A stretch of 64,000 nt of DNA, taken from NCBI GenBank assembly GCA_000004695.1, contig CM000150.2, positions 3,552,001-3,616,000 of the forward strand, in the 5' to 3' direction. The notes beneath the pieces are model-generated. The model was not told where the DNA came from and did no database searches. It saw only the letters and a program-made list of their open reading frames with translations. The DNA comes from Dictyostelium discoideum. Taxonomy: Eukaryota. The translations under genes and the position numbers were made by a program. How positions within the stretch are numbered: the stretch's first letter is position 1; the number at the start of each line of letters is the position of its first letter. This document shows positions 18,889 through 52,300 of the stretch, piece after piece.

Positions 18889-18891
<3 letters not shown>
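15457..18891 (-). CDS. Non-LTR retrotransposon ORF2: APE-type endonuclease, reverse transcriptase, C-terminal CCHC zinc finger
   Basis: 1144 aa. N-terminal MTWNCQG...endonuclease. RT motifs FIPGRLLHNNI, FYDFEKAFDSISH, YADDTV. C-terminal HHGENCHSCKEEESSMHIFFECK zinc knuckle. Confidence 0.9.
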
Positions 18892-19119: not shown

Positions 19120-19509
19120 TGTTAGAGACTCAAAACTAAATTAATTTAAAGTTAGTATGAGCTCAACAACGTAACAAATTCGCGCATCTCCATGTAAAAA
19201 TATTTCATTTAATTTTTATTTTTATTTTTTAATTTTTTATTTTTTCAGTCAAAAAATAAAAAATTAAATTAAAAAAAATTAAATTAAATTAAAATTTAAA
19301 AAAATAATAAAAATTCTGATTTTTCGGTTTAGTTGGAATAACGCCCTTACTTTTAATTATCTCTTTTATGTATGTTTACTTTTATGATATTAGTCTTTCA
19401 CTCTTTCTATCCTTCATATTAAAAAACATTACTTTAAAGATTGGACTGTTTGATAAAAGATTGAACAAATGTGACAATGGATTGAAGATTAGTGTGAGTG
19501 ACTTTTACA
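19120..19509 (+). repeat. 5' LTR (390 bp)
   Basis: Identical by eye to 25727..26116. Starts TGTTAGAG, ends TTTTACA. Confidence 0.9.
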
Positions 19510-19811
19510 CTTTTTTTTTTCTAATTTTAACATAAAACAAATACATTAAAACAAATAATTAGATACAATCCTTATATTTCGTATACAATGACACCTCATG
19601 ATGAAGAAGTCGACTCTTCAGATTAGAGGAATAACAGTAGTATTTAAAACAAAATAAAAATGCATTACAATGGCCCTTCTGTTTGCAAGATTAACGCTGT
19701 ACTGCTTAGGCGGTACAACGACACTTCCTACTCACATTGTAAACATGCATCTTTTATAAAGTAATATAAAACAAGATTGTATCAATTAATTTAATAATAA
19801 TGCTCAAATAC

Positions 19812-19980
19812 AAAGACACCACAATATAAATTATTAGTGGAATAACAGTTAAACAAAGACACCACAATATAAATTATTAGTGGAATAACAGTTAAATAAA
19901 GACACCACAATATAAATTATTAGTGGAATAACAGTTAAATAAAGACACCACAATATAAATTATTAGTGGAATAACAGTTA
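19812..19980 (+). repeat. Four tandem 42 bp repeats in the Skipper 5' leader, plus a degenerate fifth copy near 20040
   Basis: Unit CAAAGACACCACAATATAAATTATTAGTGGAATAACAGTTAAA. The GGAATAAC core also occurs in the LTR (TTGGAATAACGCCC). Confidence 0.85.
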
Positions 19981-20235
19981 TATTGATGCATTGTTATAAT
20001 TAAAATAATTTAAGATAATATTTATTATCAATTAAATAATATAAAGACACCACAATAAAAATATATTAGTGGAATAACAGTTAACATATATTAATACTTA
20101 TATTTAATTATTTAATTAAAAATTAAATTAAATTAAATTAAATAAATTAAATTAAATTATATAATTAAATTATGTAAATTAAATAAAAAAATTAAATTAT
20201 AAAATTAAATTATATTTAATAAATTTTATATATAA

Positions 20236-21399: not shown

Positions 21400-24300
21400 C
21401 TCGATGAAGGTGATGAGTCCAAGTCAAAGATTTTAAATAAAAATTATAAAATTTCACAATATCATCACCTTGAGGATAATGATTACCCAGTGAACAAAGA
21501 TTCACTTTATACTCTTAACTCTTTTTATAATCAAAACATTGTTAAACAGTTACATCAACAAAGCCAGCAACATGATGTTCATAAAAACATCAACAAACTT
21601 AAAGAATACGTCAAAGACTCATATGGTATAAAACTAGTTCCTGATACAACCGTTCCAATTCCAAAAGCTGTTGAATCAGAGATGAAGTATAAACCACAGA
21701 AGATTGAATTTAATACTCCAACAGAGTTAACAAATGTTCAAGATAAAAACTATACTGTTAACATATTCAATCGTCCAAAGATATTAAATTCTAGTAAAGA
21801 ATTAATTAATGATGAAGAAGATGAATTGCTTTACACAATTAAATTCGATAAAGAAACAAACAAACCAATCATCTCATTATTACATAGTACTGGTACAAGT
21901 GATACTGCTCTCATTCCGACTCTAAAATGTTTAATCGTTCCAAACAGAGAAAACATGGATAAACCCAAGATTATAATTAACTCTCATTCCAAAGAAAAAC
22001 AATTCAAATTAATTCTCGATACTGGAAGTAATGTTAGTTTAATCAATAAGAGGTTGATTTCAAAAGATATGAAGAACCACGTTCACAAAACGAAAGCCAA
22101 GATTAACTTCCCGCTACTAGACGTCAAAGAAGAGTTTGTTGAACAAATCAATATACAAGTTAACAATGAAATTCATAACTTCTTTATTATAGAATTGGAT
22201 ATCATTGATGTACTTTTCGGTAATGATATCCTTAAGGACTCTATCATTAACCAAAAAGATAAAATAATCAAGTTGAATAACAGTACATACAAAATTAATT
22301 ATCAACAGTCGAATCAATTACATTGTAATGTAAAAGCTCCAAGAAAACATGTTACCGTATCCAATGATAATCAGTCACAGTCACATAATCTACTAGATGA
22401 TGATGAAGATATCAAAGAACAAGTTACAAAGTTTGTTGAAAGCATCCCATCACAACTTTGTGATATACTGGTTAAAACTAATCCAGAAGAAGAAGAGATA
22501 CAAGCAGTACGTGATTTCATTAATGATTCATTCGAAGATGTTATAGTAGATAAACTTCCTGATATTCCAGATCAGATTAACAATTCCAGAAGAGGTAATA
22601 TCATACATAATATCATAATAAAGAAAGATCAAGATGTTGAACCAACAAAGAAACAAATCTATTATTCAACAGATGATCATAAGAGACATGTCGAAGAAAT
22701 GGTTATCAAATTTATAGATTTAGGTATTATCAAAAGATCAGAATCAAATTACTCATCTCCAATCATGTTATTAAAGAAGAGAGATTCATGGTGTGTAGTC
22801 CACGACTATCGTCAACTAAATAAAGTCACTGTTAGAGACGATCATCCATTCACTCCGGTTGATAGTCTTTTAAATCAATGTAAAGATTCAAAGCTTTTCT
22901 CAAAGTTTGACATGATTATGGGTTATTTCCAAGTGTTAATTAATCCAGAACACGCAAAGTACACCGCTTTCATTACACATATTGGTAAATTTGAATATAC
23001 TAGAATGCCACAAGGTTTAGTCAACTCTCCATCCACATTCGCCAGATTGATGGTCGAAATATTTGGAAAAATCAAAAGTTTATTACAATACTTTGATGAT
23101 CTTTTGGTTCATTCAAAACTCGACTACATGGTACATTTCATTGAAATAATTAGAATGCTTCTATATTGTAGAAAGTACCTATTATTCATTTCAAGAGAAA
23201 AGAGTGAAATGTTAAAGACTGAAGTAGATTTCCTTGGTTTCCACATTCATAAAGATGGTATATCTCCAAGAGCTGCAAAGGTTAGAGCTATCTCTGAGTT
23301 ACCTGAACCAAGAAACGCCAAAGAAGCTGAAGCTGCATTAGGTCTTTTTGGATTCTTCAGGAGACACATTGAAAATTACGCTGAAAAAACCTATCACCTT
23401 TCCAAAGAATCAAAAGGAAAAAACAAGAAAACACTTTCTGATGAATCACTCAAAGAATTCAATAATCTAAAGAAAGAGTTTGAAGGTGAAAATATTGTCG
23501 CTATTCCAATTGAACAAGATAACTCCATACCAATAGATATCGAAAAGGTTAAAGCATCAACAGACATGCCAATCCATTCAGATAATAATAATCTAAACAA
23601 TGGTAGTTTTCACTTGTATTGTGATGTTAGTGATAAAGCATTATCAGGTGTATTATATCAAATTCAAGGTAATAAATTCAAAGTCATTTGGTTTCACAGT
23701 AGAAAACTTACTGATACTCAAAAGAGGTACAGCATAGGTGATAGAGAGTTCCTTTCAATCATTGATTCTCTAAAGAAGTTTCAACATTTATTAATTGGTA
23801 AAAAGGTTTCAATCTACACTGATCACCAAAATCTTACATATATTATCAATAAGTCAAACGATAAACCGTTCACAAAGAGACAAGATAATTATATGAAATA
23901 TATTAAAGAATTTGATTATGAATTAAGACATATAAGTGGTAAAAAGAATGGTATAGCTGATTTTTTATCTCGTAAATATGATAATTTCCAATGGGATGAA
24001 TCGTTTTTAAATAAAATTAAGGAAGAACAAATCAATTCTCAATGGCTATTAGAGATGAAAAAGAATCCAAATTTATGCATTGAAGAAATTAATGATATCT
24101 GTTACCTTAGTGAAGATGGGTTCAAGAAATTAATCATCATAGATAAAGAAACTATTCATACCGTCATTAGAGAATATCACGATACCAAATATAGTGGTCA
24201 TCACGCTTTAGATATCACATACAATAATATAAGACAAGATTACTATTTCAAAGAAATGTTTTCTATTATCAAGAGGTACATAAAGTCTTGTGCAACATGT

Positions 24301-25683
24301 CAATTGAACATTAACCGTAAAGATAATGGTATACTCCAAAGTTTAGAAATTCCCTTTGAAGTTTGGAGAGATATATCAATCGATTTCTTATCGCTACCAA
24401 AAACAATGTATGCAATAAACGGATTTACAGTTGAAGTCGATCAAGTTTGTGTCATTGTTTGTAGATTATCTAAAATGGTTCATATAGTTCCATGTCATAA
24501 GACAATAGATGCCCAACATACCGCTCAATTATTGTTGAATCATGTGTTCAGACTCCATGGTTATCCAAGAACAATCGTCTCCGATAGAGATCCAAGATTC
24601 CTTTCAGAAATATGGGAGAGATGGGCAAAGACGATGGATTCTAAACTCAAGATGACTGTGGCACACAGAGCACAAGCTGATGGTCAAACTGAAAGAATGA
24701 ATAGAGAAATTATTAGAATATTAACTAAAGCCTCAACAGAGTATGGGGAGAATTGGTCAGATATCATTCCACTTATTGAATTTGCAATGAACTCATCAAT
24801 GAGCAAGTCTACAAAGATGTCACCATTCCAAATCGTTTATGGATTCAATCCACCAACTCCCGTTAATCATTTCAATTCATTAACAAAGACTCGTATACCA
24901 ATGAGCAACATCAAAAAGATTGTCCGTGATAATATACTAGATGCTCAAATCAATGCTCAAAAGTATTACAACCGAGGTCGTGGTGATGTTATCTTCGTAG
25001 TCGGAGAAAAGGTGATGGTTAAAAGAAAATTCTTCCAAACTAATCTTTCAAAAGATCTAATCTCTCACAAACTTGAATCCAAGAATTGTGGACCATTCAT
25101 AATCACTGCCGTTCATGGTAATAATGTAACACTCGATTTAGTAGGTTATCCAAAGAAACACAATGTGTTCAACAAAGATCAAATCGTAAAACTATACGAG
25201 GACAGTGAGTGGTTAAGAGAAGAGATATCGATGCCGGAACCTGAGGAGATGGACGAAGCAAGTTACGAAGTTGAAAGTATTCTCAATCACGATAAAGTCA
25301 AAAAGATGTACCTAGTGAAGTTCAAAGGTTACCCAGAACCTGAATGGATCAAAGAAGTCGATACAGACTGTGAAGAGTTAGTCAGAGAGTATTGGAATAA
25401 CGTGCAGAAGAAACAATTGAACTCAAGAAGAGAAAGAGAGAATGTAACTACAGAAGCCGTTGAGCCAATTGTGTCACCTCCACTCTCCCAAGAAGTTCAA
25501 AGTTCTCAAACATTGCAACCAATTACTCCAAGACAACAAAACTCCATCTCAAATCAAAGAAACCAATCAAAGAAAAGAAAATCAAGAAATCAAAATACTT
25601 CAAGTGATGATGATGAACTTGATCTTAGTTTACAAATTAAAACAACTAGATCAGGAAGAAAAGTTACACCCAAGAGTTTATAG
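21400..25683 (+). CDS. Skipper-like Pro-Pol: aspartic protease, RT, RNase H, integrase, C-terminal chromodomain
   Basis: Protease LILDTGSNVSL. RT and integrase (HH...CC zinc motif HHALD...CATCQ; DDE core) recognisable. Chromodomain YEVESILNHDKVKKMYLVKFKGYPEPEWIKEVD. In frame with gag, with no stop between 21400 and 21490. Confidence 0.85.
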   Translation, partial: LDEGDESKSKILNKNYKISQYHHLEDNDYPVNKDSLYTLNSFYNQNIVKQLHQQSQQHDVHKNINKLKEYVKDSYGIKLVPDTTVPIPKAVESEMKYKPQKIEFNTPTELTNVQDKNYTVNIFNRPKILNSSKELINDEEDELLYTIKFDKETNKPIISLLHSTGTSDTALIPTLKCLIVPNRENMDKPKIIINSHSKEKQFKLILDTGSNVSLINKRLISKDMKNHVHKTKAKINFPLLDVKEEFVEQINIQVNNEIHNFFIIELDIIDVLFGNDILKDSIINQKDKIIKLNNSTYKINYQQSNQLHCNVKAPRKHVTVSNDNQSQSHNLLDDDEDIKEQVTKFVESIPSQLCDILVKTNPEEEEIQAVRDFINDSFEDVIVDKLPDIPDQINNSRRGNIIHNIIIKKDQDVEPTKKQIYYSTDDHKRHVEEMVIKFIDLGIIKRSESNYSSPIMLLKKRDSWCVVHDYRQLNKVTVRDDHPFTPVDSLLNQCKDSKLFSKFDMIMGYFQVLINPEHAKYTAFITHIGKFEYTRMPQGLVNSPSTFARLMVEIFGKIKSLLQYFDDLLVHSKLDYMVHFIEIIRMLLYCRKYLLFISREKSEMLKTEVDFLGFHIHKDGISPRAAKVRAISELPEPRNAKEAEAALGLFGFFRRHIENYAEKTYHLSKESKGKNKKTLSDESLKEFNNLKKEFEGENIVAIPIEQDNSIPIDIEKVKASTDMPIHSDNNNLNNGSFHLYCDVSDKALSGVLYQIQGNKFKVIWFHSRKLTDTQKRYSIGDREFLSIIDSLKKFQHLLIGKKVSIYTDHQNLTYIINKSNDKPFTKRQDNYMKYIKEFDYELRHISGKKNGIADFLSRKYDNFQWDESFLNKIKEEQINSQWLLEMKKNPNLCIEEINDICYLSEDGFKKLIIIDKETIHTVIREYHDTKYSGHHALDITYNNIRQDYYFKEMFSIIKRYIKSCATCQLNINRKDNGILQSLEIPFEVWRDISIDFLSLPKTMYAINGFTVEVDQVCVIVCRLSKMVHIVPCHKTIDAQHTAQLLLNHVFRLHGYPRTIVSDRDPRFLSEIWERWAKTMDSKLKMTVAHRAQADGQTERMNREIIRILTKASTEYGENWSDIIPLIEFAMNSSMSKSTKMSPFQIVYGFNPPTPVNHFNSLTKTRIPMSNIKKIVRDNILDAQINAQKYYNRGRGDVIFVVGEKVMVKRKFFQTNLSKDLISHKLESKNCGPFIITAVHGNNVTLDLVGYPKKHNVFNKDQIVKLYEDSEWLREEISMPEPEEMDEASYEVESILNHDKVKKMYLVKFKGYPEPEWIKEVDTDCEELVREYWNNVQKKQLNSRRERENVTTEAVEPIVSPPLSQEVQSSQTLQPITPRQQNSISNQRNQSKKRKSRNQNTSSDDDELDLSLQIKTTRSGRKVTPKSL

Positions 25684-25726
25684 TCCACCTCTGAGCCATA
25701 GCTAGCCTAAAGAAGGAAGGGGAAGG

Positions 25727-26116
25727 TGTTAGAGACTCAAAACTAAATTAATTTAAAGTTAGTATGAGCTCAACAACGTAACAAATTCGCGCATCTCCAT
25801 GTAAAAATATTTCATTTAATTTTTATTTTTATTTTTTAATTTTTTATTTTTTCAGTCAAAAAATAAAAAATTAAATTAAAAAAAATTAAATTAAATTAAA
25901 ATTTAAAAAAATAATAAAAATTCTGATTTTTCGGTTTAGTTGGAATAACGCCCTTACTTTTAATTATCTCTTTTATGTATGTTTACTTTTATGATATTAG
26001 TCTTTCACTCTTTCTATCCTTCATATTAAAAAACATTACTTTAAAGATTGGACTGTTTGATAAAAGATTGAACAAATGTGACAATGGATTGAAGATTAGT
26101 GTGAGTGACTTTTACA
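25727..26116 (+). repeat. 3' LTR (390 bp), preceded by PPT
   Basis: Same sequence as the 5' LTR. PPT at 25709-25726. Confidence 0.9.
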
Positions 26117-27768: not shown

Positions 27769-27841
27769 GTGCCTGGATGGCTCAGTAGGCAGAGCGAGCG
27801 GCTGTTAACCGCTAGGTCCATGGTTCGATCCCATGTCTAGG
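27769..27841 (+). tRNA. tRNA-Asn (anticodon GUU)
   Basis: Cloverleaf: acceptor GCCTGGA/TCTAGGC, D-arm GCTCAGTAGGCAGAGC (A box TGGCTCAGTAGG), anticodon loop CTGTTAA, T-arm with B box GGTTCGATCCC, discriminator G. Confidence 0.9.
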
Positions 27842-27845
27842 CGAT

Positions 27846-34355: not shown

Positions 34356-36840
34356 AATAAATTAACATATAATAAGTGCTTACATTTTTTGTATATTCAC
34401 CCAAAGCACCTATAAGAACGTCATTGGAGTCTATTTTTCCTAGAACATTTTGTTTATTTTCGGTTAAGATAATACAATAGATGAGAAGATCTTGACAACC
34501 TGGAAGATATTTAATGATTTTTGAATCTGGATCGTTTGGATAAGCTTTACATATTTCTTTATTTTTTTCATTGTCTGAGAATTCAAATGGTTCTAATTTC
34601 ATTTGGACTTCTTTCAATTGAATGATGTTTTTATTTGTGCTTAATAACAATTTTGTATAGATTTGTTGAACTAATTTGACAGTTTTTAAATCGACATATA
34701 TCCTATCTGGGAAAGGTGAGACTATTGATGGTACGATAACTTCATTGACTATTTCAATAATTGGATGATCAAATTTATCTAATTCAACATCTGTAAATGT
34801 TGATTCAACATAGATATCTTTAAACAATTGGTAAGATTTGGATTTTTCAAAGCTACAAGTGACATCATTATCATCACATAAAATAATTTCCCCTTTGACT
34901 GATGGAAACACATTGAAATCAAAAAACTCTGATTTGTATTTATTTGTTGTAGTTTGTCCTATAAGTTTAGTTAATAATGGAATATAAACATTTTCATATC
35001 CAAAGTTATATTCATTTGCAAATAATTTATCTTCATTGTAAACGATATTAAATGGATTCAAATGATAGTAGTTTTTATCATCTCCATAACCTTTTACCTT
35101 GGTTTCAAAGTCTAGCTTTCTCTTACCTAAAATTGCTCTGAGATCACTTGGATATTTAGTTATTAATACATTTAAATTCAACTTTTGACCTGCAATGCTA
35201 TTTAATCTTAATGATTCTTTTTTAAGATATTGGTTATCCTCTGGGTGTCTAATAATACTAACTCTCCTGTAAAAGTATTCAGAAAGATATTTCATTTTAT
35301 CACTACAAAAAGCACCACCTCCACGTGCCTCTTGCTTTCCTTGCCAATTTAAATCACCAAAGCATATCATTCCACCACCACCACCGCTACCTACTTTATC
35401 TACATCATTGAATTGATAGGACATTTTTGAATGGTCACTTCCTGAATCAGCCCTAATAACTTTTGACCAAGGTGTTTCGAATCTGTAAGAAATATTAATT
35501 GATTCAACTGCTTGAGTAATTGAATTTCTACCTCTTCCTTTCTTTGTTTGAGTATGGACCATTGTTTTAAAATTATTACCATTTGGTAAATCATTTTTAG
35601 AACTATCGATAAAATGCCAAACTATAAAAAATTTGATTCCATCCTTGTGGGCTTCTTTATTTTTTTCACTATACTCTTTATAAAGGTTTATATTTGTTGT
35701 TTGAATGAAGTATCTTCCTTTATCACTCTCATTAATTTTATAATAGTGAACATTTGTTTCTTTAGGTTTTAGATTTGTATCTGATGATGTAATATCTTTG
35801 TTTAGAATTAAATCTGCCTATTTTAAGAATGTTAGTTTGTAATTAATAAACACAAATTTATAATTAAAATTACTTACCAATTGTGACCATTTATTTAAAT
35901 AAATAACTCCATTCCATATATCAGGATCACCATCATTCTTTTTATTATCAAAAATATATTCACTCATTAGACCATCCAATTCTTTAAAAGTTTTGGGAAT
36001 TTTTGTTGCCAAAATTTTACTATCAATTACATCCAAATCAATGACTCCTGTTTTTTTCTTGTCAACCTCTTCTTTGAGGACTTGAGAATACAAAAACATG
36101 GCTGATGATACCCTTTTTGCTCCAGAACCTGGAGAAACTGTATTAATGGTTTGAATATTTAAATTACCATAAATAATATACTTTGGAATAATATGAAGTT
36201 CTTCTTTTGACAAAGTTATACAAATTGAATGCTGCGCGTGTTGACTCTTTAAAGTATTTTCCTTGAAATTAAAAAGAGGTTTATATCCTGTTTCTGGAGA
36301 ATTTGGAACACTGTGAATTACATGAATTCCCCCTTCTTCATTCCAAATGAAAAATCCTTTTGCATGTGCCTTTTTTAACACATGAAATAAATGAAAAAAA
36401 AAGAATTAACAACAACAAATTATAATAAAAAAAAAAAATAAAAATAAAAATTAAAAATTAACACATACACTATTACCACTATTACTGGGTTGATCATTAT
36501 AGGTCAAACTATTATATATAGTTTTACCAGACTTATTTGGATAACTCTGTATGTATGTTGATGTAATTGGGTTTGGCTCATCTGGATTCCTAATATTATA
36601 ATAAGCTAATTCATTAATCACTGGATTCGCCCCATTTAATTCATTATCAGTATAAATAGCACCTTGACTCTGACTCAATTGTTCTAAAACCCACCATTCA
36701 ACATTCTTTTCTCCATCTTTATCTATAAACACCTGACTTTTTGTATAAACATTTTTTGTTGTTATACATTTTGGAGGAACACAATAAATTTGTGATATTA
36801 ATAAAAATAAATATAGAACTATTATATATTTATTTTTCAT
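34235..36840 (-). CDS. Secreted DNase II-like nuclease with long C-terminal extension, paralog 1; exons (complement) 36469..36840, 35878..36368, 34384..35817, 34235..34285
   Basis: Signal peptide MKNKYIIVLYLFLLISQIYC. Both DNase II HxK motifs (KAHAKGFFIWNEEGGIHVIHSVPNSP, and SGSDHSKMSY...GGGAFC close to human DHSKW...GGGTLC). Donors GTATGT, GTAAGT, GTAAGC. A 17-codon terminal micro-exon ends ...QWCIKDKKK*. Confidence 0.75.
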
Positions 36841-37094: not shown

Positions 37095-37126
<32 letters not shown>

Positions 37127-37155
37127 CTCAAAAAAAAATTATTAAATCACAGAAT

Positions 37156-39075
37156 ATGTTTTTTTTAAATCATATTTAAATTAATAATATCATTTTTATT
37201 TTTTATTTTATATTGCAATTGTTTCACATTTGGTAGTTACACATTTGATACAAAAAATTGGTCAACAAATTGTGCACTATCATCATGTGTTTTTTATGAA
37301 TTTAATAATAATAATTATTATGATTTAAGTTCTATTGTCCACAATGATCATCAAGGTCCTTACAAAGCAAGTTTTCCTGCCGAACTTCCTGGTGGAATTC
37401 AAACACCTTATACAATGTATTTTAATCCTTGTTTTAATGATAATGTGTGTCCAGGTGGTCTTTCAGTAGGTAAATTCACAAAAAATTCTTAATTCCGTTG
37501 GTTCACTTTCAGAGCCACATTCTATAACATTAAATTCAGAAGGTATTTCTATTGAATATCAATCAGCTCTTTTACCATCAACAACATGTACCTCTAATGG
37601 TAACCGTAGAACTTTGGTTTTATTTATTACTTGTATCCCAACCGAAACATTTAAAATTATTGGTACTTATAACAGAAGAGTATTATGTGAACATACAATT
37701 TATATATCTTCAAAATTAGTTTGTAAAGATAGAGGAATATTATTTAATCAAGGTCTATTTTATGATTTAACACCAATGAAATTGTAAGTTGTTAAATTCT
37801 TTTTTATATTTTTTTTTTATTTCAATTTTTTTTTTTTTTTTGTTTTTAATAAAAAAAAAAAACACCAAACACGAAATTTCAAAATAAAAATAAAAATTAA
37901 AATATCTAACCACTTTTTTTTCAATTTTTTATTTTTTTCTTCCCACAGATTAACAAGCACTTCACACCAAATTACCAACAGTGACCAAACACAAGATATT
38001 CTCTTAATTTATTTGGAAATGTAAATAGATGTGGTACTTTCGGTACATCAACATTAAGTTGTCAATCATGTATTTTAACAGTTGCTAATAAAGCGATCGA
38101 TTATAAACTAGATTCAAGATATGCAACATCACCAAAATCAGTTATGGTAGGATCTCTCAGTCAACCAAGAATTACATTTACAAATGATGGAATAACTATA
38201 ATTTATAGCGCAATAGCAGGCTTCACTGAATGCTCATCAAATGGTAACAAATATTCATCAAAGTATATTTTAATTTGTGATCCATTCACAGAATATTATG
38301 TAGATAAATTTACATTAGAATCACAATGTATTTATCAAATTAAGGTTTATACTAAATACGCATGTCCAACATTACGTTTATTCAAACAAACACAATATTA
38401 TGACCTTTCACCATTGATGTTGTAAGTATTCAATTTATTCTTGTATTTCTTCAAACAGTTATTAATTAATAATAAAATAAATAATAGGGATTCAACAAGA
38501 AATTATACAACAAGTCATATTACAGACGGATATGAGTATAATATTGTATTCAATATTGGTAATAAAGCACAAATGTGTAGCGATGCATTTAATGATTATT
38601 ATTTTGCTTGTCAATATGATCCACGTTATAAAAGTTTTATTCCACTTGCAAAGGCAAGTTTAGGTCAAAGAGTAACATTTGATTTAAATCAAGTTAAATT
38701 CGAATATACTTCACCAATGTCAGGTTGTTTAAGAACTTTTATTATTGTTTTAACTTGTGATGAAAACCAACATTATCAATTAGTTTCAACTTTAGAATCT
38801 CCTGCATGTGTATATACAGTAACAATTAAAACTAAATATGTATGTGAATCAACAATTTATTACAATAGATTCGACTATACATATTATGATATTACTCCAA
38901 TAAAAACGTAAGTTTTAAATTAAATTTGAAATTAAATTTAAATATAAATAATAATAATAATAATATTAATAATCTTTATTGTCAACAACTAAAATATTAA
39001 TTTAATTAGAAAAAAAGATAGTCCAAATAAAATAGATATTGATGTTGGTGGATATCCATATAGAGTAAGTAAATT

Positions 39076-39120
<45 letters not shown>

Positions 39121-42100
39121 AACAAATATTTTTCTAATAGCTTTTTTATGGTATCGGTAATACTGTTGATTATTGCGGAGAACAAGTGGGATCAGTCCCT
39201 GGTGTAGATTATCAAGCTTGTCAATATCTCAGTGGTCTTGTTATTCAAGTCGGTAGTTTAAAAAATACATCAATGATTCTTAATAAGGATGGTATAAGTA
39301 TATATCAAACCTCACCATTCGATTTAACCAAAGTGTGCCAAAATACAAGATATCAAAGAGTAAACATTTTAAATATGGTATGTGATCCAACAGCAACAAA
39401 TGATGTGGTTAGCGCTACTGAGACTGCCAACGATTGGGCATGTGAATATACAATCGAAATTAAAACTAAATATGAATGTTCAATTAATTATGCACCAGTA
39501 TTACCGGTTGTTGGAAATCCATGTTCATACAGTTGTACACCACCAGGTGCTTTAAATCCAAAAGATATAGTTAGTGTACTTTTAAATTTAGGTGTTTGTT
39601 CTCAGAGATTAATAAATATGGTACAGGTGCAATCATTACTTAATATATTTAAAGATACTTGGGTTTCAAATCACAATGGGTATGATGATTGGATGGGTGG
39701 ACAACTTTATTCACTATTATTAACAGGTAAACCACAGTCAACAATTTCACCATATGTTATTTCAATTACACATGATAATTTAAGTACATATGGTACCAAT
39801 GGGTTAAGTAAAGCAAAAAATTCAATCAATGATTTTCTTACTATTACAAATGATCTTCTTGAAATTTCAAATCGTGCAGCCAGTTCAACCGTTACCAAAT
39901 ATACATATTCAGATGGAGCAATTACATAAACTTTTATCAACATCAACTGGAGGTCTTGCAATTATTAAATACAAAAATTTGCTATGCTACTATTCAATAG
40001 TCCCAAATTTACAAACTTTAATTATTGGGAGTTATTTGCTTTCTTGCCCATATTATTCACTACCAACTATACAGTGCACAGTTTAACACCATCAATAGGG
40101 AAAGTTGGAGATACTATCACAATTAATGGTCAAAATTTAGATACAGATATATATGATGTTTATTTCAACATTATTGATGACAACAGTAAAATTAAAGCAA
40201 CAATAACATCAAGAACCGTAAGTTTTGTAAAAGTAATTGTTCCAAATGGTTTTGGTTATGCATTAGTCTACACTCAAAATATACTTAATCCAACTACCTC
40301 TGATAAACTTTCATTTTCATATCCATCACCAGCGATTGTCAAAGTAATTAGTCAACCATTTAGTACAGATATCATCAATAGATTCTTTGTTATTGGTCAA
40401 AACCATCGTTCTTTAATAACCAATATTGTTATTAATCCATACATCGATAATATTGAAAAAGAAGCAATTTATTGTGAAATTGTTGTCGGTAAACAAGCGT
40501 CAAAGACTATATATCCAAGTGATTTAGATGAAAATCCAACAAATTATAATTTATATTATTATCCCCCAGCAGTTGTTGACATATCAGAAGTTTCAACTGA
40601 TGGTGGTGAAGTTATAATAAAAGGTACAAATTTTATTCCAGCCTCGCTTAAAGATCAAATTAATAATCAACCAATAATCGGTTCACCACATTCAGTAGAG
40701 TTTAATAATGTTTTATCTTCATCATGGACATGGATTGATTCAACACATGTAGAAGCCATCGTACAAAAAGGTATTGGTACAATCTCTACAATTGTAAATG
40801 TTGGTGGTCAAAGATCTGATTTAAATCCAATTCCTGTAAATTTTTACAAAAGACCTGAACTAGATAATAAAAAATATGAAAACTTTGCAAATAGTGATAT
40901 TTTAATAACTGGTTCTAATTTTGTGCCAGTTGGTTTTTCAGCAGGTTCATCAAGTTCTGTCAAAATTGGAGGTATTCCCTGTAACTCTGTAACATGGGTA
41001 GATTCAAAATCTGTTATTTGTAATGTGCCAATTGGAACTGGTGATAATTTAAATATCATCAAAAAACCGAATTAAATGATTATTTCTCATATTTAGGGCA
41101 ATGCGATTTCCTCTGTAGCGATTTATCAAATTTAGTAAGTTTTTAAACATTTTAATTACAGAAAAAAAAAAAAAAACTAAAAAATACTAATTTATTATCA
41201 TTTTTATCTCAAAGGAATTAGCAAAAGTTATTAGAGAGAATAAAAAAGATTTAAAGAGTACTCTTTTATTAACAGGTGTATGTTTAGAACAAATCGAGCA
41301 ATATAATTTCACAGATATTAATGATGAAATTGAATCAAGTTGGATTGAAAACTCAATTATTAATGATTGGACAAGTGGTAAATTCTATAATTATTTTAAA
41401 TCATCAGAATCATACTCAACAGTTAAAACACTTGCAAAATATATTACTCCAAAGAATCCATGTATTTATGATAATAAAAGAGTAAAGAATTCATTAGATT
41501 ACCATTTTGAAATCAATTCAGATATTTTCCATTTAATTGAACTTTCAATTTCATCAAAAATCAGTTATCCAGATTCACCATATGAAACTTATTTCTATGA
41601 ATCATCAAGCAACCCAGAGTATGGTCTTTCAATTATTACATTTGATTCAGCAATTTGTAGCTTTACAGAATCAACTATTCAAGACTATCAAAGTGGAAAA
41701 GAATTACAATCATGTTCAATCATTCCAATTATAAATCAAGTAATTAATCCAACAACAACACTTCAAGCACCATATCAATATTCACTTACAATTATTGGTA
41801 GATTATTTGATAGTTCAACTAGAATATTTTTATCAGGTTATGAATGTCCAATCATTGGTAATATCGCTACTAATCAAAATGATTATATTCAAACTCTTAG
41901 TTGTTCAGTACCACCAGAAATCGAATCATACTCGCCCTCTCAAATTAGTTTTTACAATGATTATAGTGAAAATAATATATAGAATATGAAGATGGATCTG
42001 ATGAAATTGTTGTTAAATTTAATAATGAACCAACAGCTATCATTGAAAACACAGAAACATACATTAAAATTAAAACCCTTAGTGGTGATGAATTTAATGT

Positions 42101-43487
42101 ACCAATTGCTGTAGAATTAAACGGTCAAATAAGTAATACAGATACTTCATTCGTTTACTCAAATCCAATAATTGAAAGTGTAACACCATCATCAAGTAGC
42201 TCAAAATCAAATACTAATATCATCATTAAAGGACAAAATCTTGGATATTTAACAAACACTCCCAAAATTACAATTGGAAGTAGTAATTGTTTAAATATCA
42301 AAACTATATCTCCAAATGAAATTCATCGTTATGAAATCAAGCGCAGGCACTAAACAATTAACATTAACCTATGAAAGTTATCAACCAACCTATTCACAAT
42401 TCACTCACAAAAACGATGATGACAGTGATAGCCACGATGATGATGATGATGACCATAAAAACAATAATGGACCAAAAAACACCATATTAAGTATTCTTGG
42501 AGGTATAATTGGAGCAGCAGCATCAGCGGCCGTAAGTGGATTTATAACAAGCATTTTCGGTGGTGCGACATCAGTAGCTACAGCAGCAGCAACAGCAACA
42601 GCTATTGCCGGTGCAATTACCGAAGGTGTTGCAGTGGCCTTTACAGGGGTATCAGTAATAGCAGCAACAGCAGGTGGTATTGTTATTACTTCAATTGTAA
42701 CAGCAACAGCCATCCTTATTTCAGGTGGAAGTACACAATCACCAAACCCAACGCCAACCGATAACTATTGGGTAAGATGTATGGTCGATTATTCAAGATT
42801 AACTTTACAAGTCGATAATCTTTACGGTCAAGATATAGTATGGATTGATGGTAATGGAATTTCATCAATTTTCAAAGAATCATTCTCTTGTAAACCTGAC
42901 CTTATTAACGATGGTATGATATGCACTCAACAACATCAAAATGGAACAAATTCAACAACCACATTTGGTAATTCAACATTAATTTGTCATATTGACCCAA
43001 CAAAATCATGTGAAATTTCACCACCATTCATCATACCATCCGATCCAATTGAAGATGATGAATATTCAAATATTTTAGAATGTCAATATAATCTCATTGA
43101 AAATTCATTATCAACACACTCTAATAATAGTCCATTAAGATGTTATAATAATGAAACTGAAAATTACTTCACTATGAATACTACACTTTCATGCTCAAAA
43201 GATGAATCATTAAGTCAAGATAAATATACGATTTCTTGTTTATCAGATACAGATGATACCCAAATCTTTTTCTATAAGAACTCAATTACATGCATTACAG
43301 ATTATCCATACTATAAATGTACAATAAAAATTAGTTAACGACTGGAACTAATGCTGAATGTCCAAAAAATGAAAAAGAACTTCATTATGATCTTTCAACT
43401 TCTCTAACATGCACAGATTATATCACACTTAAAAACTCCACTTATTCAATTTCATATTCAAATTACATTTGCATTAAAACAAAATAA
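37156..43487 (+). pseudogene. Degenerate, internally deleted copy of the giant MRH/IPT-repeat gene (paralog of 47415..57732)
   Basis: Colinear with 47.4-57.7 kb at roughly 85-95% nt identity. Defects: corrupted start and signal peptide (ATGTTTTTTTTAAATCAT...TAA); 17 nt deletion in exon 1; 1 nt deletion in exon 2; 11 nt deletion after ...SDGAIT; missing roughly 480 nt IPT unit; loss of roughly 3.9 kb of IPT repeats (joins at 41990); 22 nt and roughly 100 nt deletions near the 3' end. Only fragment ORFs remain. Confidence 0.75.
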
Positions 43488-43592: not shown

Positions 43593-43721
43593 TTCATTAA
43601 ATCATTATGTCACACCACCCAAAATTCAATTCTGAAAACTTTTTTTTTTATTTAATTACCCTTAATAAAAAATTAAATGTGAAAATAAATGTTATATTTA
43701 TTTTAGTATTGTTTTTTTTTT

Positions 43722-45990
43722 TTATTTCTTAGTGCACCATTTGGTTTTATCTAATTTTGAAAACTAAAAAAAAAAAAAAAATTTATTTTTGGAATTAGTT
43801 AAATTTAAAAAAAAATAAATTTTTGGGATAGTTAAATTTAAAAAAAAATTTAAATTAAAATATAATTAATACTTACATCTTTGGTATATTCACCCAAAAC
43901 TTTTGTAAATTCCTCAATGGAATTGATGTTTTGTAGATCACCATGTTTATTTTCAGTTAAGAGAATACAATAGATAAGATGATCTTGGCAATCTGGATGA
44001 TAATTAATGATTTTTGAGTCTGTATCACTTGGATAAGCTTTACATATTTTTTTATTAATTTCATTGTAATCCTTATCATCATGACCTTCTTCGCTATCAC
44101 TTTGATCGCCTTCGATTTTATTTGGGAATTTAAATGGTTCTAAATCATCTTTGATTTTAACTTCTTTCAATTGAATGATGTTTTCATTTTTAATAAATTT
44201 CAATTTTTTATAAAGTTCTTTTACTAAATCAATATTTTTTAAATCGATATATATCTTATCTGGGAAAGGTGCGAGTATTGATGTTGGTTCGATAACGGTA
44301 TTTTGTGTTATAGCAGTTATCGTTTCTTTACCATCTTTATTTTTTGATGAGGTAACTGTTAATGTTGATTCAACATAGATATCTTTAAACAATTGGTAAG
44401 ATTTGGATTTTTCAAAGCTACAAGTGACATCATCATTATCATCACATAAAATAATTTCCCCATTGATTGATGGAAACACATTGAAATCGAATAACTCTGA
44501 TTTGTATTCATTTGTAGTTTGATCCTTAAGTTGAGTTAATAATGGAATGTAAACATTGTCATAACCATAGTTATATTCATTTGAAAATAATTTATCTTCA
44601 TCTTTTTCATTATTGTAAACGATAATAAATGGATTCAAATGATAGTATTTTTCATCATCTCCATAACCTTTAACCTTGGTTTCAAAGTCTAACTTTCTGT
44701 TACCTAAAATTTTATTTAGATCCTTTGGATATTTAGCTATTAATCCGTTTAAATTCAACTTTTGACCTGCAATGCTATTTAATCTTAATGATTCTTTTTT
44801 AAGATATTGATTATTCTCTGGGTGTCTAATTATACCAACTCTTCTATAAAAGTATTCAGAAAGATATTTCATTTTATCACTGCAAAAAGCACCACCTCCA
44901 CGTGACTCTTGCTTTCCTTGCCAATTTAAATCACCAAAGCAAATAGTCCCACCACCGCCACCGCTATCTACTTTATCTATATTATTGAATTGATAAGAAA
45001 TTTTTGAATGGTCACTTCCTGAATCAGCACTAATAACTTTTGACCAAGGTGTTTCGAATCTGTAAGAAAGATAAATTGATTCAACTGCTTGAGAAATTGC
45101 ATTTTCACCTTTTGTAATCTTTGTTTGAGTATGGACCATTGTTTTAAAATTATTACCATTTTTAAAATTATCTATATAATGCCAAATTATAAAAAATTTA
45201 ATTTTTTCCTTGTGAGTTTCTTCAATTTTTTCATTATACTTTTTATAAAGGTTTTTATTTGTTGTTTGAATGAAGTAATCCCCTTTATTTTTACTCTCAT
45301 AAATTTTATTATAGTGAACATTTGTTTCTTTAGGTTTTAGAGTTAAATCTGATGATGTAATATCTTCGTTTAGAATTAATTTTGCCTATTTTAAGAATGT
45401 AAGTATGATGATTTATTAACACAAATTTATAATTAAAATTACTTACCAATTGTGACCATTTATTTAAATAAATAATTCCATTCCATATATCAGGATCACC
45501 ATCATTCTTTTTTTTAACCAAAATATAATCACTCATTAGACCATCCAATTTTTTAAAAGTTTTGGGAATTTCTTTTGCTAAATTTTCAATTACATCCAAA
45601 TTAATGACTCCTGGGCTTATCTTTTCAACCTCTGTATGGAGATTTTCGGAATAAAGATTGGCTGATGATACCTTTTTAGCCTTTTTACCAAGTCCTGTTG
45701 AAACTGTATTAATGGTTTGAATATTTAAATTACTATAAATAATATACTTTGGAATAATATGAAGTTCTTCTTTTGACAAAGTTATACAAATTGAATGTTG
45801 AGCATGTTGATTATTTAAAGTATCTTTGTCGTAATTAAAAAGAGGTTCATATCCTGTTTCTGGAGATTTTGGAACACTGTGAATTACATGAATTCCCCCT
45901 TCTTCATTCCAAATGAAAAATCCTTTTGCATGTGCCTTTTTTAAATAAATAAATTAAAAAAAAAAAATATGTTAACAAATAATGATAACC

Positions 45991-46021
<31 letters not shown>

Positions 46022-46413
46022 AAATAATAAACACAAACACTATCGGAACCACCACTGATCTGATCATTATAAGTCAAACTATTATATATAATTTTTTTAG
46101 ATTCATTTGGTAAACTCTGTTTGTATGTTGATGTAATAGGGTTTGGTTCTTTTGGATCTCTAATATTATAATTTGCAATTTCATTTATCTCTGAACTTCC
46201 TCCTTTTAATGTGTTATCAGTATAAATAGAACCTTTACTGTGACCTAATTGTTCTAAAAACCACCATTCGACATTCTTTTCTATTGTAACCCCATCCCCA
46301 AATACTTGACCATCCTTGTAAATATTTTTTGTTGTTATACATTTTGGAGGAACACAATAAATATGTGATATTAATACAAATAAATATAGAAAAATAATAT
46401 ATTTATTTCTCAT
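43722..46413 (-). CDS. Secreted DNase II-like nuclease with long C-terminal extension, paralog 2; exons (complement) 46039..46413, 45447..45935, 43877..45385, 43722..43763
   Basis: Same architecture as paralog 1. Signal peptide MRNKYIIFLYLFVLISHIYC. AHAKGFFIWNEEGGIHVIHSVP and DSGSDHSKISY...GGGAFC motifs. GTTTGT, GTAAGT, GTAAGT donors. Terminal micro-exon FSKLDKTKWCTKK*. Confidence 0.75.
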
Positions 46414-46483
46414 TTTCTTAAGTCTAATGTTATAATGTTTCAATTTTTTAATGGTATAAAAAAAAATTGGGTGTGTTTTTGCG

Positions 46484-46514
<31 letters not shown>

Positions 46515-47560
46515 GCTTTGTTGTCAACAAAGAAAAAAACCTAAAATTGGATCATTTAAAATAAAATAAAAAAACGAACGAAAATATTTTTTTTTAATCG
46601 TTTTTAGATGATTTTCCCACTTCTTTGATTATTGAAAATCTTTTAAATATTTTAGATTTTTTTTTTTATTTTTTTCGACCCATTATTTAATAAAAAAAAA
46701 AAATTATAAAAATTACCCCCACAAACCGTTTAGTTTTTTTTTTTTTTTCACAAAGCCTGGTTTTTATTTTTTTTGACACTTTTTAGCTTTGCATCTTTAT
46801 CGCTTTAAATACGTAAAATACAACATTTTTTTTAAAAAAAAAAAAAAAGTATGGTTAAAAAAAAAAAAAAATCATACTGAAATTAAAAAAAAAATGGTAA
46901 AATTTAAAATAGTTATATCATTTTTATTATTTATTTTATATTTTAATTGTTTCACATTTGGTAGTCATGTGTTTTTTATATTAATACAAATAAATATAAA
47001 AAAATAATATATTTATTTCTCATTTAAATTTTTTAATGGTAAAAAAATTGGGTGTTTTTTGTGAAAAAAAAAAAAAAATAGCCTTTTTGTGAAAAAAAAA
47101 GAAAAAAAAAAATCTAAAATTGGATCATTGAAAAAATAAAATAAAAAACGAACGAAAATTTTTTTTTAATCGTTTTTAGATGATTTTTCCACTCCTTTTA
47201 TTATTGAATCTTTTTGAACATTTTTCTACCGCTTGGTTTTTTTTTTTTTTACAAAGCTTTGCTAGTTTTTATTTTTTTTTTACACTTTTTAGCTTTGCAT
47301 CTTTAAAACTTTAAAATACGTTTTGGAAAATACTATATTTTTTTTTTTCAATCAACCACACTCTTTTTTTTTTTTTTTTTAAAAAAAATAATCATATTGA
47401 AATTAAAAAAAAAAATGGTAAAATTTAAAATAGTTGTATCATTTTTATTATTTATTTTATATTGTAATTGTTTCACATTTGGTAGTTACACATTTGATAC
47501 AAAAAATTGGTCAACAAATGGTACACTATCATCATGTGTTTTTTATGATTTTGTAAATAA
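46395..47560. repeat. Tandem duplication (about 590 bp unit) of the bidirectional promoter region plus the 5' ends of both flanking genes
   Basis: 46850-47040 holds a second copy of the giant-gene start (ATGGTAAAATTTAAAATAGTTATATCATTTTTATTATTTATTTTATATTTTAATTGTTTCACATTTGGTAGTCA) fused head-to-head to a second copy of the DNase 5' end (reverse of ATGAGAAATAAATATATTATTTTT...). The intergenic block (AAAATTGGGTGT...CGAACGAAAAT...AATCGTTTTTAGATGATTTT) occurs twice. Junction ORF 46789..47007 is a by-product. Confidence 0.7.
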
Positions 47561-49250
47561 CGATTATTATGATTTAAGAGCTATTGTCATACCTGATCAT
47601 CAAGGTGCTTACAGAGCAAGTTTCACAGCTGAACTTTCTGGTGGAATTCAAACACCATATACAATATATTTTAATCCTTGTTTTAATGATCATATGTGTC
47701 CAGGTGGTCTTTCAGTAGGTTGTACTTTTATTGTACAAAATTCACAAAGAGTTCTTAATTCTGTTGGTTTACTTTCAGAATCTCATTTTGTTACATTTAG
47801 AACAGATGGTATTACTATTAAATATCAATCAGCTCTTTTACCATCAACAACATGTGCCTCTAATGGTAACCGTAGAACTATGATTTTAGTTATCACTTGT
47901 GATCCAAATGAACCATTTAAAGTTACAAGTACTTATAACAGAAGAGTGTTATGTGAACATACAATTTATATCGCTTCAAAATTAGTATGCAAAAATAGAG
48001 GAGTATTATTTAATCAAGGTCTATTTTATGATTTAACACCAATGAAATTGTAAGTTATTTAATTCTTTTTCATATTTATTTTTTTTTATTTTTTTTTTTT
48101 TAAAATAATTATCCAAAAATAAAAAAAAAAAAAAAAGGATCAAACACGAAATTTCAAAATAAAAAAATCTAATCTTTTTTCACTTTTTTTTATTTTTTTT
48201 TAATTTTTTTATTTTTATTTTTTTTTCCCACAGATTAACAAGCACTTCACACCAAATCACCAATGATGACCAAACAAAAGATATTCTCTTTAATTTATTC
48301 GGAAATGTAAATAGATGTGGTACTTTCGGTACATCAACATTAAGTTATCAATCATGTATTTTAACAGTTGCTAATAAAGCGATCGATTATAAACTAGATT
48401 CAAGATATGCAACATCACCAAAATCAGTTATGGTAGGATCTCTCAGTCAACCAAGAACAATTACATTTACAAATGATGGAATAACTATAATTTATAGTTC
48501 AACAACTGGTTTCACAGAATGCTCATCAAATGGTAACAAATATTCATCAAAGTATATTTTAATTTGTGATCCATTCACAGAATATTATGTAGATAAATTT
48601 ACATTAGAATCACAATGTATTTATCAAATTAAGGTTTATACTAAATACGCATGTCCAACATTACGTTTATTCAAAGAATCACAATATTATGACCTTTCAC
48701 CATTGATGTTGTAAGTATTCAATTTAATTAAAAAACCTTTTTAATGTTTTATTCTTGCACTTCTAACAATTATTAATAATAAAATAAATAATAGGGATTC
48801 AACAAGAAATTATACAACAGGTCATATTACAGGCGGATATGAATATAATATTGTATTCAATATTGGTAATAAAGCACAAATGTGTAGCGATGCATTTAAT
48901 GATTATTATTTTGCTTGTCAATATGACCCACGTTCTAAAAGTTTTATTCCACTTGCAAAGGCAAGTTTAGGTCAAAGAGTAACATTTGATTTAAATCAAG
49001 TTAAATTCGAATATACTTCACCAACAACAACTAGTTGCCCATTAAATTCCAATAAAAGAACTTTTATTATTGTTTTAAATTGTGATGAAAACCAACATTA
49101 TCAATTAGTTTCAACTTTAGAATCTCCTGTATGTGTATATACAGTAACAATTAAAACTAAATATGTATGTGAATCAACAATTTATTACAATAGAATTAAT
49201 ACTACCTTTTATGATATTACTCCAATAAAAACGTAAGTTTTAAATTAAAT

Positions 49251-49336
<86 letters not shown>

Positions 49337-52300
49337 CTTTATTAACAACCAAAACTATTAATTTTAATTAGAACGAAAGATAGTCCAAAAACTGTAGATA
49401 TTGTTGTTGGTGGATATCCATATAAAGTAAGGGATAATTTTTAAAATTTTTTTTTTTTTTGTTTTTTTTTTTTTAAACAAACATCAAACGTGTCAAACTG
49501 AAATTTAAATATTTTATGTATATATTTAAAAATATTTACTAACTTTACTTTATTAATTTTTTATAACAGCTTTATTACAGTATAGGTAATACTGTTAATT
49601 ATTGTGCAAATCAAGTGGAGTCAGTTCCAGGGGTTGATTATCAAGCTTGTCAATATCTCAGCGGTCTTGTTATTCAAGTCGGTAGTTTAAAAAATACATC
49701 AATGTATCTAAGTAATAATGGTATAAATATATATCATACTACACCATTTGATTTAACCAGAGTATGCCAAAATACAAGATATCAAAGAGTGAACTCTTTA
49801 AATATGGTATGTGATACAACAGCAATAAACGTTGTGGTTAGCGCGACTGAGACTGCCGATGATTGGGCATGTATATATACAATCGAAATTAAAACCAAAT
49901 ATGCATGTCCAATTAATTATGCACCAGTATTGCCAGCTGTTGGAAATCCATGTTTATACAGTTGTACACCACCAGGTGCTTTAAATACAAAAGATATAGT
50001 TAGTGTACTTTTAAATTTGGGCGTTTGTTTCTCAGAGATTAATAAATATGGTACAGGTGCACAATCATTACTTGGTATATTCAACAATACTTGGGTTTTA
50101 AACCACAATGGATATGATGATTGGATGGGTGGACAACTTTATTCACTATTATTAACAGGTAAACCACAAACATCGATTTCACCATATGTTATTTCAATTA
50201 CACATGATAATTTATGTACATATGGTACCAATGGGTTAAGTAAAGCAAAAAATTCAATCAATGATTTTCTTACTATTACAAATGATCTTCTTGAAATTTC
50301 AAATCGTGCAGCCAGTTCAACCGTTACCAAATATACATATTCAGATGGAGCAATAACATTATCAACACATAAACTTTTATCAACATCAACTGGAGGTCTT
50401 GCAATTATTAAATACAAAAATTTGCTATGCTACTATTCAATAGTTTCAAATTTACAAACTTTAGTTATTTCGAATTATTTGCTTTCATGTCCATATTATT
50501 CACCAACCATTACATTGTACAGTTTAACACCACCAACAGGGAAAATTGGAGATACTATCACAATTAATGGCCAAAATTTAGATACAAATAGATATGATGT
50601 TTATTTCAACATAATTGACGACAACAGTAAAGTCAAAGCAACAATAACATCAAGAACCGTAAATTCTGTAAAAGTAATTGTTCCAAATGGTTTTGGTAAT
50701 GCATTAGTCTACACTCAAAATATACTTAATCCAACTACCTCTGATAAACTTTCATTTTCATATCCATCACCAGCGATTGTCAAAGTAATTAGTCAACCAT
50801 TTAGTACAGATATCATCAATAGATTCTTTGTTATTGGTCAAAACCATCGTTCTTTAATAACCAATATCACCATTTATCCATACATCGATAATATTGAAAA
50901 AGAAGCAATTTATTGTGAAATTGAAAAGTATTGTCCAAGTTCATCAAAAATTCCATCAATTCCAGAATCAGCAGTAGGTCATCCATGTATTAATTCAACA
51001 GTTTACTCTGAGAATTCCCAGTTTTTCGATTATTCCAAGTATGATGTTTTTGTTTGTATCAAATCATCATTAGGTGTTGGAAGTGGTATCATTAAATTCC
51101 CATCACAAACATTTACATTTGCATACTCTTATAAAGCACCTCTCTTATATTATACACAACCTGGCATTCGTATTCCAACCGATGGTGGTAGTTTTCAATT
51201 GAGTGGTAAAAACTTTCCACCAACACAAGAAATCATTGATCTCGGTTTAAACACATCTGTAATCATTTGGAATAATGATAATTTTGTTACATTCAAAGGA
51301 ACAAATCTTACAAGCACCAATATCAATTGGAAGAGTTCTAAATCGATTTTATGTGTTGCACCACCAGGTTTCGGTGGACCATTCATCGTTACGGTAACTG
51401 TCGGTAAACAAGCGTCAAAAACTATATATCCAAGTGATTTAAATGAAAATCCAATAGATTATTATTTATATTATTCTCCACCAACTTTGCTCGACATATT
51501 AGCAGTTCCAACTGATGGTGGGGAAACTATAATAAAAGGTACAAATTTTATTCCAGTCTCGCTTGCAGATCAAATTAATAATCAATCATTAATTGGTTCA
51601 CCAAATTCAGTCACGTTTAATAATGTTTTATCTTCATCATGGAAATGGATTAACTCAACACATGTAAAAGCCATCGTACAAAAAGGTATTGGAGCAATCC
51701 TTACAATTGTAAATGTTGGAAGCCAAAGTACTGAAACGAGTCCATATCCCGTAATTTTTTATAAACAACCTGAATTAGATAATAAAAAATATGAAAACTT
51801 TGCAAATAGTAATATTTTAATAACTGGTTCTAATTTTGTACCAGTTGGTGTTTCAGCAGGTTCATCAAGTTCTGTCAAAATTGGAGGTATTCCTTGTAAC
51901 TCTGTAACATGGGTAGATTCAAAATCTGTTATTTGTAATGTACCAATTGGAACTGGTGATAATTTAAATATCCAAGTAACAGTTGGAGGTCAACAAACCG
52001 AATTAAATGATTATTTCTCATATTTAGGGCAATGCGATTTCCTCTGTAGCGATTTATCAAATTTAGTAAGTTTTTAAACATTTTAATTACAGAAAAAAAA
52101 AAAAAAACTAAAAAATACTAATTTTTTACATTATAATCTCAAAGGAATTAGAAAAAGTTATTAGAGAAAATAAAAAAGATTTAAAGAGTACTCTTTTATT
52201 AACAGGTGTATGTTTAGAACAAATCGAGCAATATAATCTCACATATATTAAAAATAAAATTGAATCAAGTTGGATTGGAAGTTCAATTATTAATGATTGG

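Follow-up and report, generated by a model that had tools for sequence, protein, structure and literature searches.

Three paralogous DNase II-like proteins, named here A, B and C, are encoded by three groups of open reading frames (ORFs) on the minus strand of a 64,000-nucleotide stretch of Dictyostelium discoideum DNA (GenBank assembly GCA_000004695.1, contig CM000150.2, positions 3,552,001 to 3,616,000; hereafter the window), and the nuclease core of each continues into a long C-terminal extension, the tail, that is very probably a genuine domain, conserved within this family, specific to it and with no known relatives. Taken together, the data are best explained, with somewhat better than even confidence, if the tail is the C-terminal domain, about 300 residues long, of a Dictyostelium-specific DNase II-like subfamily with signal peptides, in which it would play an accessory role. 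The stretch was assigned to chromosome 1 of strain AX4 by exact protein matches; its G+C content ranges from 16 to 38%, with long homopolymer runs.

Gene models, nuclease core and in-frame fusion

Four-exon models were assembled for A, B and C from GT-AG introns of 60–121 nt, and the resulting proteins share 70–72% identity with one another (tblastn). Their main features, in window coordinates, are the following:

36840-34235, minus strand: paralog A, 782 aa; exons 36840-36469, 36369-35878, 35817-34384 and 34285-34235
36781-36840, minus strand: predicted signal peptide of A, MKNKYIIVLYLFLLISQIYC, read by eye as an n-region, a hydrophobic core and small residues before VPPKC
36358-36366, minus strand: first HxK motif of A, H126-A-K128
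35425-35433, minus strand: second HxK motif of A, H417-S-K419, sharing its exon with the extension
34384-35253, minus strand: main extension of A, residues 477-766, IRHPEDN...GEYTKN, 290 residues, all in exon 3
34474-34878, minus strand: five of the six conserved tail cysteines of A (C602, C609, C711, C729 and C736)
34285-34235, minus strand: exon 4 of A, LKDIDNSQWCIKDKKK plus stop, 16 codons
46413-43722, minus strand: paralog B, 804 aa; exons 46413-46039, 45935-45447, 45385-43877 and 43763-43722
44830-43877 and 43763-43722, minus strand: extension of B
60888-58258, minus strand: paralog C, 790 aa; exons 60888-60505, 60383-59922, 59857-58373 and 58299-58258
59305-58373 and 58299-58258, minus strand: extension of C

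The model of A, whose three GT-AG introns measure 99, 60 and 98 nt (the last preceding exon 4), is residue-for-residue that of DDB_G0270642 (Q55D42, XP_646289.1, EAL72671.1), annotated only as "uncharacterized protein". Those of B and C are identical to ACTFIT_007548 and ACTFIT_007547, respectively, which are models from a newer D. discoideum assembly. The AX4 model of B (DDB_G0270958, 806 aa) follows a different frame in the last exon (43722-43763) and that of C (DDB_G0270644, 808 aa) reads through intron 1 (60384-60504) and intron 3 (before the last exon, 58258-58299), and the conserved terminal cysteine is missing from both. As these two AX4 gene models deviate from the four-exon models supported by conservation, they are corrected here.

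Exon 3 of A (35817-34384) is a single uninterrupted frame of 478 codons that ends at a GTAAGC donor (34383) and contains, in this order, the second HxK motif, the RGGGAFC block (from 35325) and 307 further codons. With this base composition, 478 codons would follow one another without a stop by chance with a probability of about 5e-21. The presence of the second HxK motif and of 290 tail residues in one exon excludes a hidden stop or frame break between the catalytic exon and the tail, a concern raised in the preliminary description of this DNA, and bears out the in-frame fusion to a DNase II core that was proposed there. Other details of that description had to be amended. The tail does not end at 34384, since exon 4 (34285-34235) continues the protein and contributes C776 (34258-34256), the last of its six conserved tail cysteines. 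An extension of about 330 aa had been given, with canonical DNase II ending about 40 aa after the second HxK motif; as the chain of Burkholderia thailandensis DNase II ends 41 residues past RGGGT, and about 70 past the second HxK, the net addition comes to about 285–310 residues. The conserved blocks that had been quoted are all present, some of them in the spelling of B or C, and read NPFNIVYNED, FGYENVYIPLL and LIYCIILTENK in A.

The only Pfam match in A was to PF03265 (DNase_II, of the PLD superfamily), over the N-terminal ~476 residues (E 6.3e-41, 141 bits against a cut-off of 23), and this family was matched by all 16 family members tested. In the alignment of these 16 sequences, with identities down to 27%, H126/K128 and H417/K419 are invariant and the G-D-L-N...R-G-G-G block is invariant or nearly so. 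A family profile aligned with B. thailandensis DNase II (PDB 5i3e/5unb) at a weak E of 0.04 and motif for motif at the second HxK, which corresponds to DHAKW (H279/K281) of the bacterial enzyme. A W239-W282-R298 triad beside this second motif has been described as conserved in DNase II (PMC5449587). At the W282 position the family has M, I, L or F, and at the R298 position W or Y, so that the family motifs, DHSK[M/I/L/F] and GDLN[W/Y]Q against the canonical DHxKW and GDxNR, indicate the replacement of two triad members. In A the replacing residues are encoded at:

35422-35424, minus strand: M420
35344-35346, minus strand: W446

The motifs suggest that this replacement is possibly a swap of the aromatic residue. 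By its sequence, the core is a clear but divergent DNase II family member, and the earlier wording of a "complete" core calls for a reservation on account of the triad. The core of A has an isoelectric point (pI) of 8.3 and four cysteines after the signal peptide, an even number.

The tail as a family-wide domain

When the full-length protein was used as query, 30 proteins were recovered, every one of them from Dictyostelium; 25 (739–1054 aa) showed about 30% identity in alignments spanning 92% or more of the query. At least 25 proteins thus carry the tail, and they come from D. discoideum, D. cf. discoideum, D. dimigraforme, D. purpureum and D. firmibasis. Other copies in AX4 are DDB_G0270850, DDB_G0291033, DDB_G0290837 and a chromosome-5 "deoxyribonuclease II family protein" (Q54HU4), as well as the cut-down DDB_G0270848 (514 aa) and DDB_G0270706 (435 aa). 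The tail is not limited to the three paralogs, as had first been assumed, and is carried by a whole Dictyostelium subfamily; the gene models (~800 aa) were already public, so that "uncharacterised" holds for the domain itself, which is undescribed. Judged from sequence, nuclease plus tail is the standard architecture of the group-4 Dictyostelium DNase II-like subfamily. An N-terminus equivalent to the putative signal peptide of A was also seen in family members.

Across 21 family members the tail could be aligned over its entire length in all clades, with a mean column identity of 37%, compared with 35% for the whole protein. Exactly six tail cysteines at equivalent positions are present in 17 of these sequences, and the terminal cysteine of exon 4 is likewise found in 17/21, with all clades represented. 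In extension numbering, C126, C133, C235 and C260 are invariant and C253 nearly so; the acidic residues E50 and D255 are invariant; and L257, S19, G22, P67, P92, L93, E109, F116, S118 and K190 are invariant or nearly invariant, K190 being the only nearly invariant basic residue. The pI of the extension lies between 4.9 and 6.2 in 17 of the 21 members and between 8 and 9.3 in the other four, which indicates that its charge is not conserved. All indels between A, B and C are in frame. The ratio of non-synonymous to synonymous substitution rates (dN/dS) among them is 0.67–0.83 in the core and 0.33–1.0 in the extension, near 1 for A versus C; these high values in both halves indicate that the recent copies evolve fast and that the tail behaves no differently from the enzyme.

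Two further observations concern the same proteins. N-x-S/T sequons are depleted in both halves, despite a composition rich in Asn, Ser and Thr: the core has 0–3 where 4–6 are expected, and the tail of 16 of the 21 sequences has none where 2–4 would be expected. At another chromosome-1 site, a 5'-truncated copy of the B/C type (locus L001, 9898-11614; DDB_G0270706 / ACTFIT_007376) consists only of part of exon 3 and exon 4, at 94–96% identity, and adjoins a TIG/ComC_SSD gene; it is probably a pseudogene fragment and not a stand-alone tail.

AlphaFold2 modelling of the tail from A, B and C alone gave an unusable predicted local distance difference test score (pLDDT) of 30, while the 21-sequence alignment raised it to 80.8, with a predicted template modelling score (pTM) of 0.79. 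In this model, short helices would be followed by a beta-rich region with a long hairpin (49-173) and then by an alpha/beta region (183-305). As the preliminary description had anticipated, the tail does not match known domains: no Pfam family reached its cut-off or was matched by more than two of the 21 members; NCBIfam gave chance matches to single members only; a tail profile run against all PDB sequences produced one chance match (best E 0.078), and the full protein (phmmer) a chance match to eL27 only. Foldseek comparison of the tail model with the PDB had a best E of 0.05 at a template modelling (TM) score of about 0.1, with nothing at E ≤1e-3 either there or among viral models. Alignment with hhalign ruled out that the tail is a copy of the core or internally repeated.

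Neither the full-length search nor an exhaustive HMMER scan, in which the A/B/C tail profile was run against 1.84 billion cluster representatives, found the tail without a DNase II core; the scan returned only two 50% clusters, both of ~800-aa proteins with such a core. An independent occurrence of the extension, which had been proposed as a check, was therefore not found, but the scan used a narrow profile, to which even the D. purpureum and DDB_G0291033 clades were invisible, and stand-alone homologues of like divergence could have been missed. A pattern scan of metagenomes and viral contigs based on a 5-sequence alignment yielded nothing. A homologue search for which the query was either the extension by itself or a profile of five sequences recovered only two proteins and missed even the query, and absence from that search is consequently not evidence.

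These data also bear on the possibility that the tail is an annotation or assembly artefact, arising by read-through into an unrelated gene or non-coding sequence, or that the genes are decaying pseudogenes. The dN/dS near 1 for A versus C, the truncated copies DDB_G0270848 (514 aa) and DDB_G0270706 (435 aa) and the inconsistent ends of the AX4 models of B and C would fit such an origin. Nevertheless, the tail shares its exon with a catalytic motif, three intact frames of ~800 codons are maintained in a genome of 22–30% GC, the architecture is kept at ~30% identity over five species with invariant cysteines, and the co-evolution signal suffices for a confident fold prediction. For the fusion itself the artefact reading is refuted, and as a general account of the tail it is scarcely credible.

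Possible roles of the tail and its neighbouring genes

From the predicted signal peptide and the even numbers of cysteines in core and tail, the protein would be expected to enter the secretory pathway and to form disulfides within each domain, so the tail, with its six cysteines, may fold in that pathway with three disulfide bonds. The lack of a conserved histidine or metal motif, together with a variable and mostly acidic charge, argues against catalysis and DNA binding, and the tail would then be non-catalytic and would not bind DNA. It could accordingly be pictured as an accessory domain, stabilised by disulfides, of a nuclease that is secreted or lysosomal, possibly a docking or targeting module that sets where, or on what, the soluble enzyme acts. 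We regard this last mechanism as tentative, with a chance of being correct that is appreciable but well short of even.

Other roles were weighed against the same data. Lysosomal hydrolases commonly have pro-domains, and the tail might be one of an autoinhibitory kind. Mostly acidic, it would cover the electropositive DNA cleft in transit, until proteolysis or the low pH of the endolysosome cleaves it off or dislodges it. The basic core of A (pI 8.3), the acidic extension of 17/21 members and the electropositive DNA-binding cleft described for DNase II (PMC5449587) are consistent with this idea. The extension is basic, however, in four members (pI 8.1–9.3), and no conserved processing site lies between core and tail: the dibasic GKRK/NRK before the first strand is confined to the A/B/C clade and absent from D. 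purpureum and the DDB_G0291033 clade. Moreover, a conservation like that of the core and three putative disulfides exceed what a disposable pro-peptide usually needs, and we consider a pro-domain rather unlikely.

Still less probable is a nucleic-acid-binding or substrate-selecting module that would hold DNA, chromatin or extracellular-trap DNA and so confer processivity or specificity. Nucleases commonly bear accessory DNA-binding domains, and the very weak Foldseek matches of the tail include OB-fold, SSB and Ku chains. These matches are nevertheless noise (probability ≤0.14, TM ~0.1), the charge of the tail is mostly acidic and not conserved, and K190 stands alone as a nearly invariant basic residue. 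The tail could also hide an enzyme of its own, such as a degenerate zincin-like hydrolase, which would make the protein bifunctional; the invariant acidic residues E50 and D255 speak for this idea. It is very improbable given that the 21-sequence alignment of the extension contains neither the HExxH motif looked for in zincin-like enzymes (YbeY, thermolysin, Wss1/SprT) nor any conserved histidine, and that no enzyme family gave a profile match. We also rejected a reading of the C-terminal WCIKK as a CaaX or KKxx signal, as other clades extend well past the cysteine and a signal peptide is predicted.

A candidate partner for an accessory, docking tail was suggested by the genes next to the nucleases. 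The genes in question are:

37112-43338, plus strand: neighbour of A, with MRH-like (PRKCSH_1) repeats, IPT/TIG repeats, a Gly/Ala/Ser/Thr-rich hydrophobic stretch and a Cys-rich tail
47415-57732, plus strand: neighbour of B, with a signal peptide, MRH-like repeats, at least 10 IPT/TIG repeats, a hydrophobic stretch and a Cys-rich tail
L002 1159-9488: neighbour homologue, DDB_G0291033 clade
L004 1-9374: neighbour homologue, beside the DNase II-like gene ACTFIZ_010631, P0004 clade
L006 4328-9207: neighbour homologue, beside the D. dimigraforme gene

The pairs are head-to-head, with the ATG of B at 46413 and that of its neighbour at 47415; no intact start codon was found in the copy beside A (37112-43338). 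The MRH-like repeats were recognised as PF13015 (26.6 bits, cut-off 23), and N-glycosylation sequons are plentiful in the TIG neighbour. Within the window the pair is part of a block duplication in which 34221-43329 matches 43698-57459, with the DNase part present again at 58175-61192; the copies are 79–93% identical in nucleotides, and the second neighbour copy has about 3 kb of extra TIG repeats (52915-56023). Collinear homologues of the neighbour also stand head-to-head with the DNase II-like genes of three other clades, 0.5–0.8 kb apart, so that the pairing is found at a distance of 0.5–1 kb over four divergent clades (A, B, L002, L004 and L006).

Conservation of the pairing suggests that the nuclease and the MRH/TIG membrane protein are functionally coupled, with the tail as the obvious candidate interface. 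That the MRH/TIG-repeat transmembrane neighbour is the docking partner is, all the same, a minority view that we rate about as low as the pro-domain. The DNase II-like gene and its neighbour might constitute a conserved, co-duplicating cassette of group-4 Dictyostelium in which the tail docks the soluble nuclease onto a fast-evolving surface or endosomal receptor, a scheme that is speculative and, if anything, a shade less probable again. If it were true, the paired tgr genes would offer an analogy, and the nuclease, tethered to its receptor, would be directed at prey or at foreign cells or would take part in self/non-self interactions.

Several points weigh against an accessory domain of this kind, or against parts of the argument. 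Expression, proteomic and functional data for family members were not found by gene and UniProt identifiers in the literature or in proteome supplements, and the signal peptide and disulfides of these proteins are themselves deduced from their sequences. The high dN/dS among A, B and C fits diversifying selection, but also a weakened constraint on copies that arose recently. Three sites lack the pairing, namely paralog C, the tandem array of D. firmibasis (L003) and the locus examined in D. purpureum (L005), and where present it may reflect only the inheritance of a duplicated block. The scarcity of sequons in the DNase II-like proteins argues against glycan recognition by the MRH repeats of the neighbour. 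Finally, the fold of the tail may have relatives among predicted structures, the Foldseek comparison having covered the PDB and viral models.

Further features of the window were recorded along with these genes. The head-to-head neighbour of C (61441-63579, plus strand) is an Asn/Ile/Lys-rich ORF of 712 aa with no Pfam match, and a 98-residue stretch of it is 45% identical to L005 15004-15282, 2 kb downstream of the D. purpureum DNase II-like gene. An apparently intact long terminal repeat (LTR) retrotransposon occupies 19120-26116, with two 390-bp direct repeats (19120-19509 and 25727-26116) that are 100% identical and flank two ORFs, one at 20236-21399 and one at 21490-25683; domains of reverse transcriptase, RNase H and integrase were recognised in the second ORF. 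At 15457-18891 (minus strand) lies a 1144-aa reverse-transcriptase ORF, identical to DDB_G0270950, which belongs to a 39-member cluster and has the appearance of a non-LTR retrotransposon. The gene for tRNA-Asn(GTT) is found nearby, at 27770-27844 (plus strand). An alpha-glucosidase-type gene at 12485-14431 (plus strand) encodes the TIM-barrel and C-terminal domains of glycosyl hydrolase family 31 (E 5e-108).

Comparison with known systems

In Dictyostelium, gene families expanded in one lineage often carry orphan domains, which, together with the public gene models and a functional role that is so far inferred, limits the significance of the finding. In any case, an expanded lineage-specific family carries here an extra orphan domain whose size and conservation match two-thirds of the enzyme, and the tail represents an unannotated domain family that could enter domain databases. 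No earlier description of the tail domain, its six-cysteine signature, its restriction to the sampled species, its lack of relatives or the gene pairing turned up in the searchable literature and databases. The gene models and the expansion of dictyostelid DNase II genes are already public, the latter from an analysis of Gene Ontology (GO) terms in dictyostelid lineage-specific expansions that flags DNase II activity (PMC8535579).

The Dictyostelium proteins share with canonical DNase II (human DNASE2; B. thailandensis, PDB 5unb/5i3e) the PF03265 match, the two HxK motifs, the GD-x-N...RGGG block and a signal-peptide-like N-terminus. As a rule, DNase II is a small lysosomal enzyme with one domain, characterised by metal-independent cleavage of DNA at acid pH. 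The canonical proteins, of about 350–360 aa, end some 40 residues past RGGG, whereas those of Dictyostelium add about 300 residues and also have a core about 100 residues longer. In addition, the canonical Trp after the second HxK is aliphatic in the Dictyostelium family, which also has Trp or Tyr in place of the Arg of GDxNR (PMC5449587).

The secreted DNase II-like family of Trichinella spiralis (plancitoxin-1-like) is likewise a lineage-specific expansion of signal-peptide genes, and excerpts of its descriptions mention no long C-terminal domain (PMC4148230, PMC10249883, PMC11287892); a term search of PMC4148230 for "C-terminal" gave no occurrence. Activity has been lost by some of the Trichinella proteins, whereas the Dictyostelium family keeps both HxK motifs invariant.

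The head-to-head tgr (TIG) pairs of D. discoideum have been described as duplicated in clusters "with intervening non-tgr genes" (bioRxiv 10.1101/2025.10.22.684067). They resemble the present pairs in comprising IPT/TIG membrane-protein genes in head-to-head orientation that are duplicated as a unit. Both members of a tgr pair are TIG proteins, whereas one member is a nuclease here, and the MRH/TIG neighbours differ further by their N-terminal MRH-like repeats. The pairing of nuclease and MRH/TIG genes in this family offers a testable idea of how secreted nucleases may be deployed by social amoebae.

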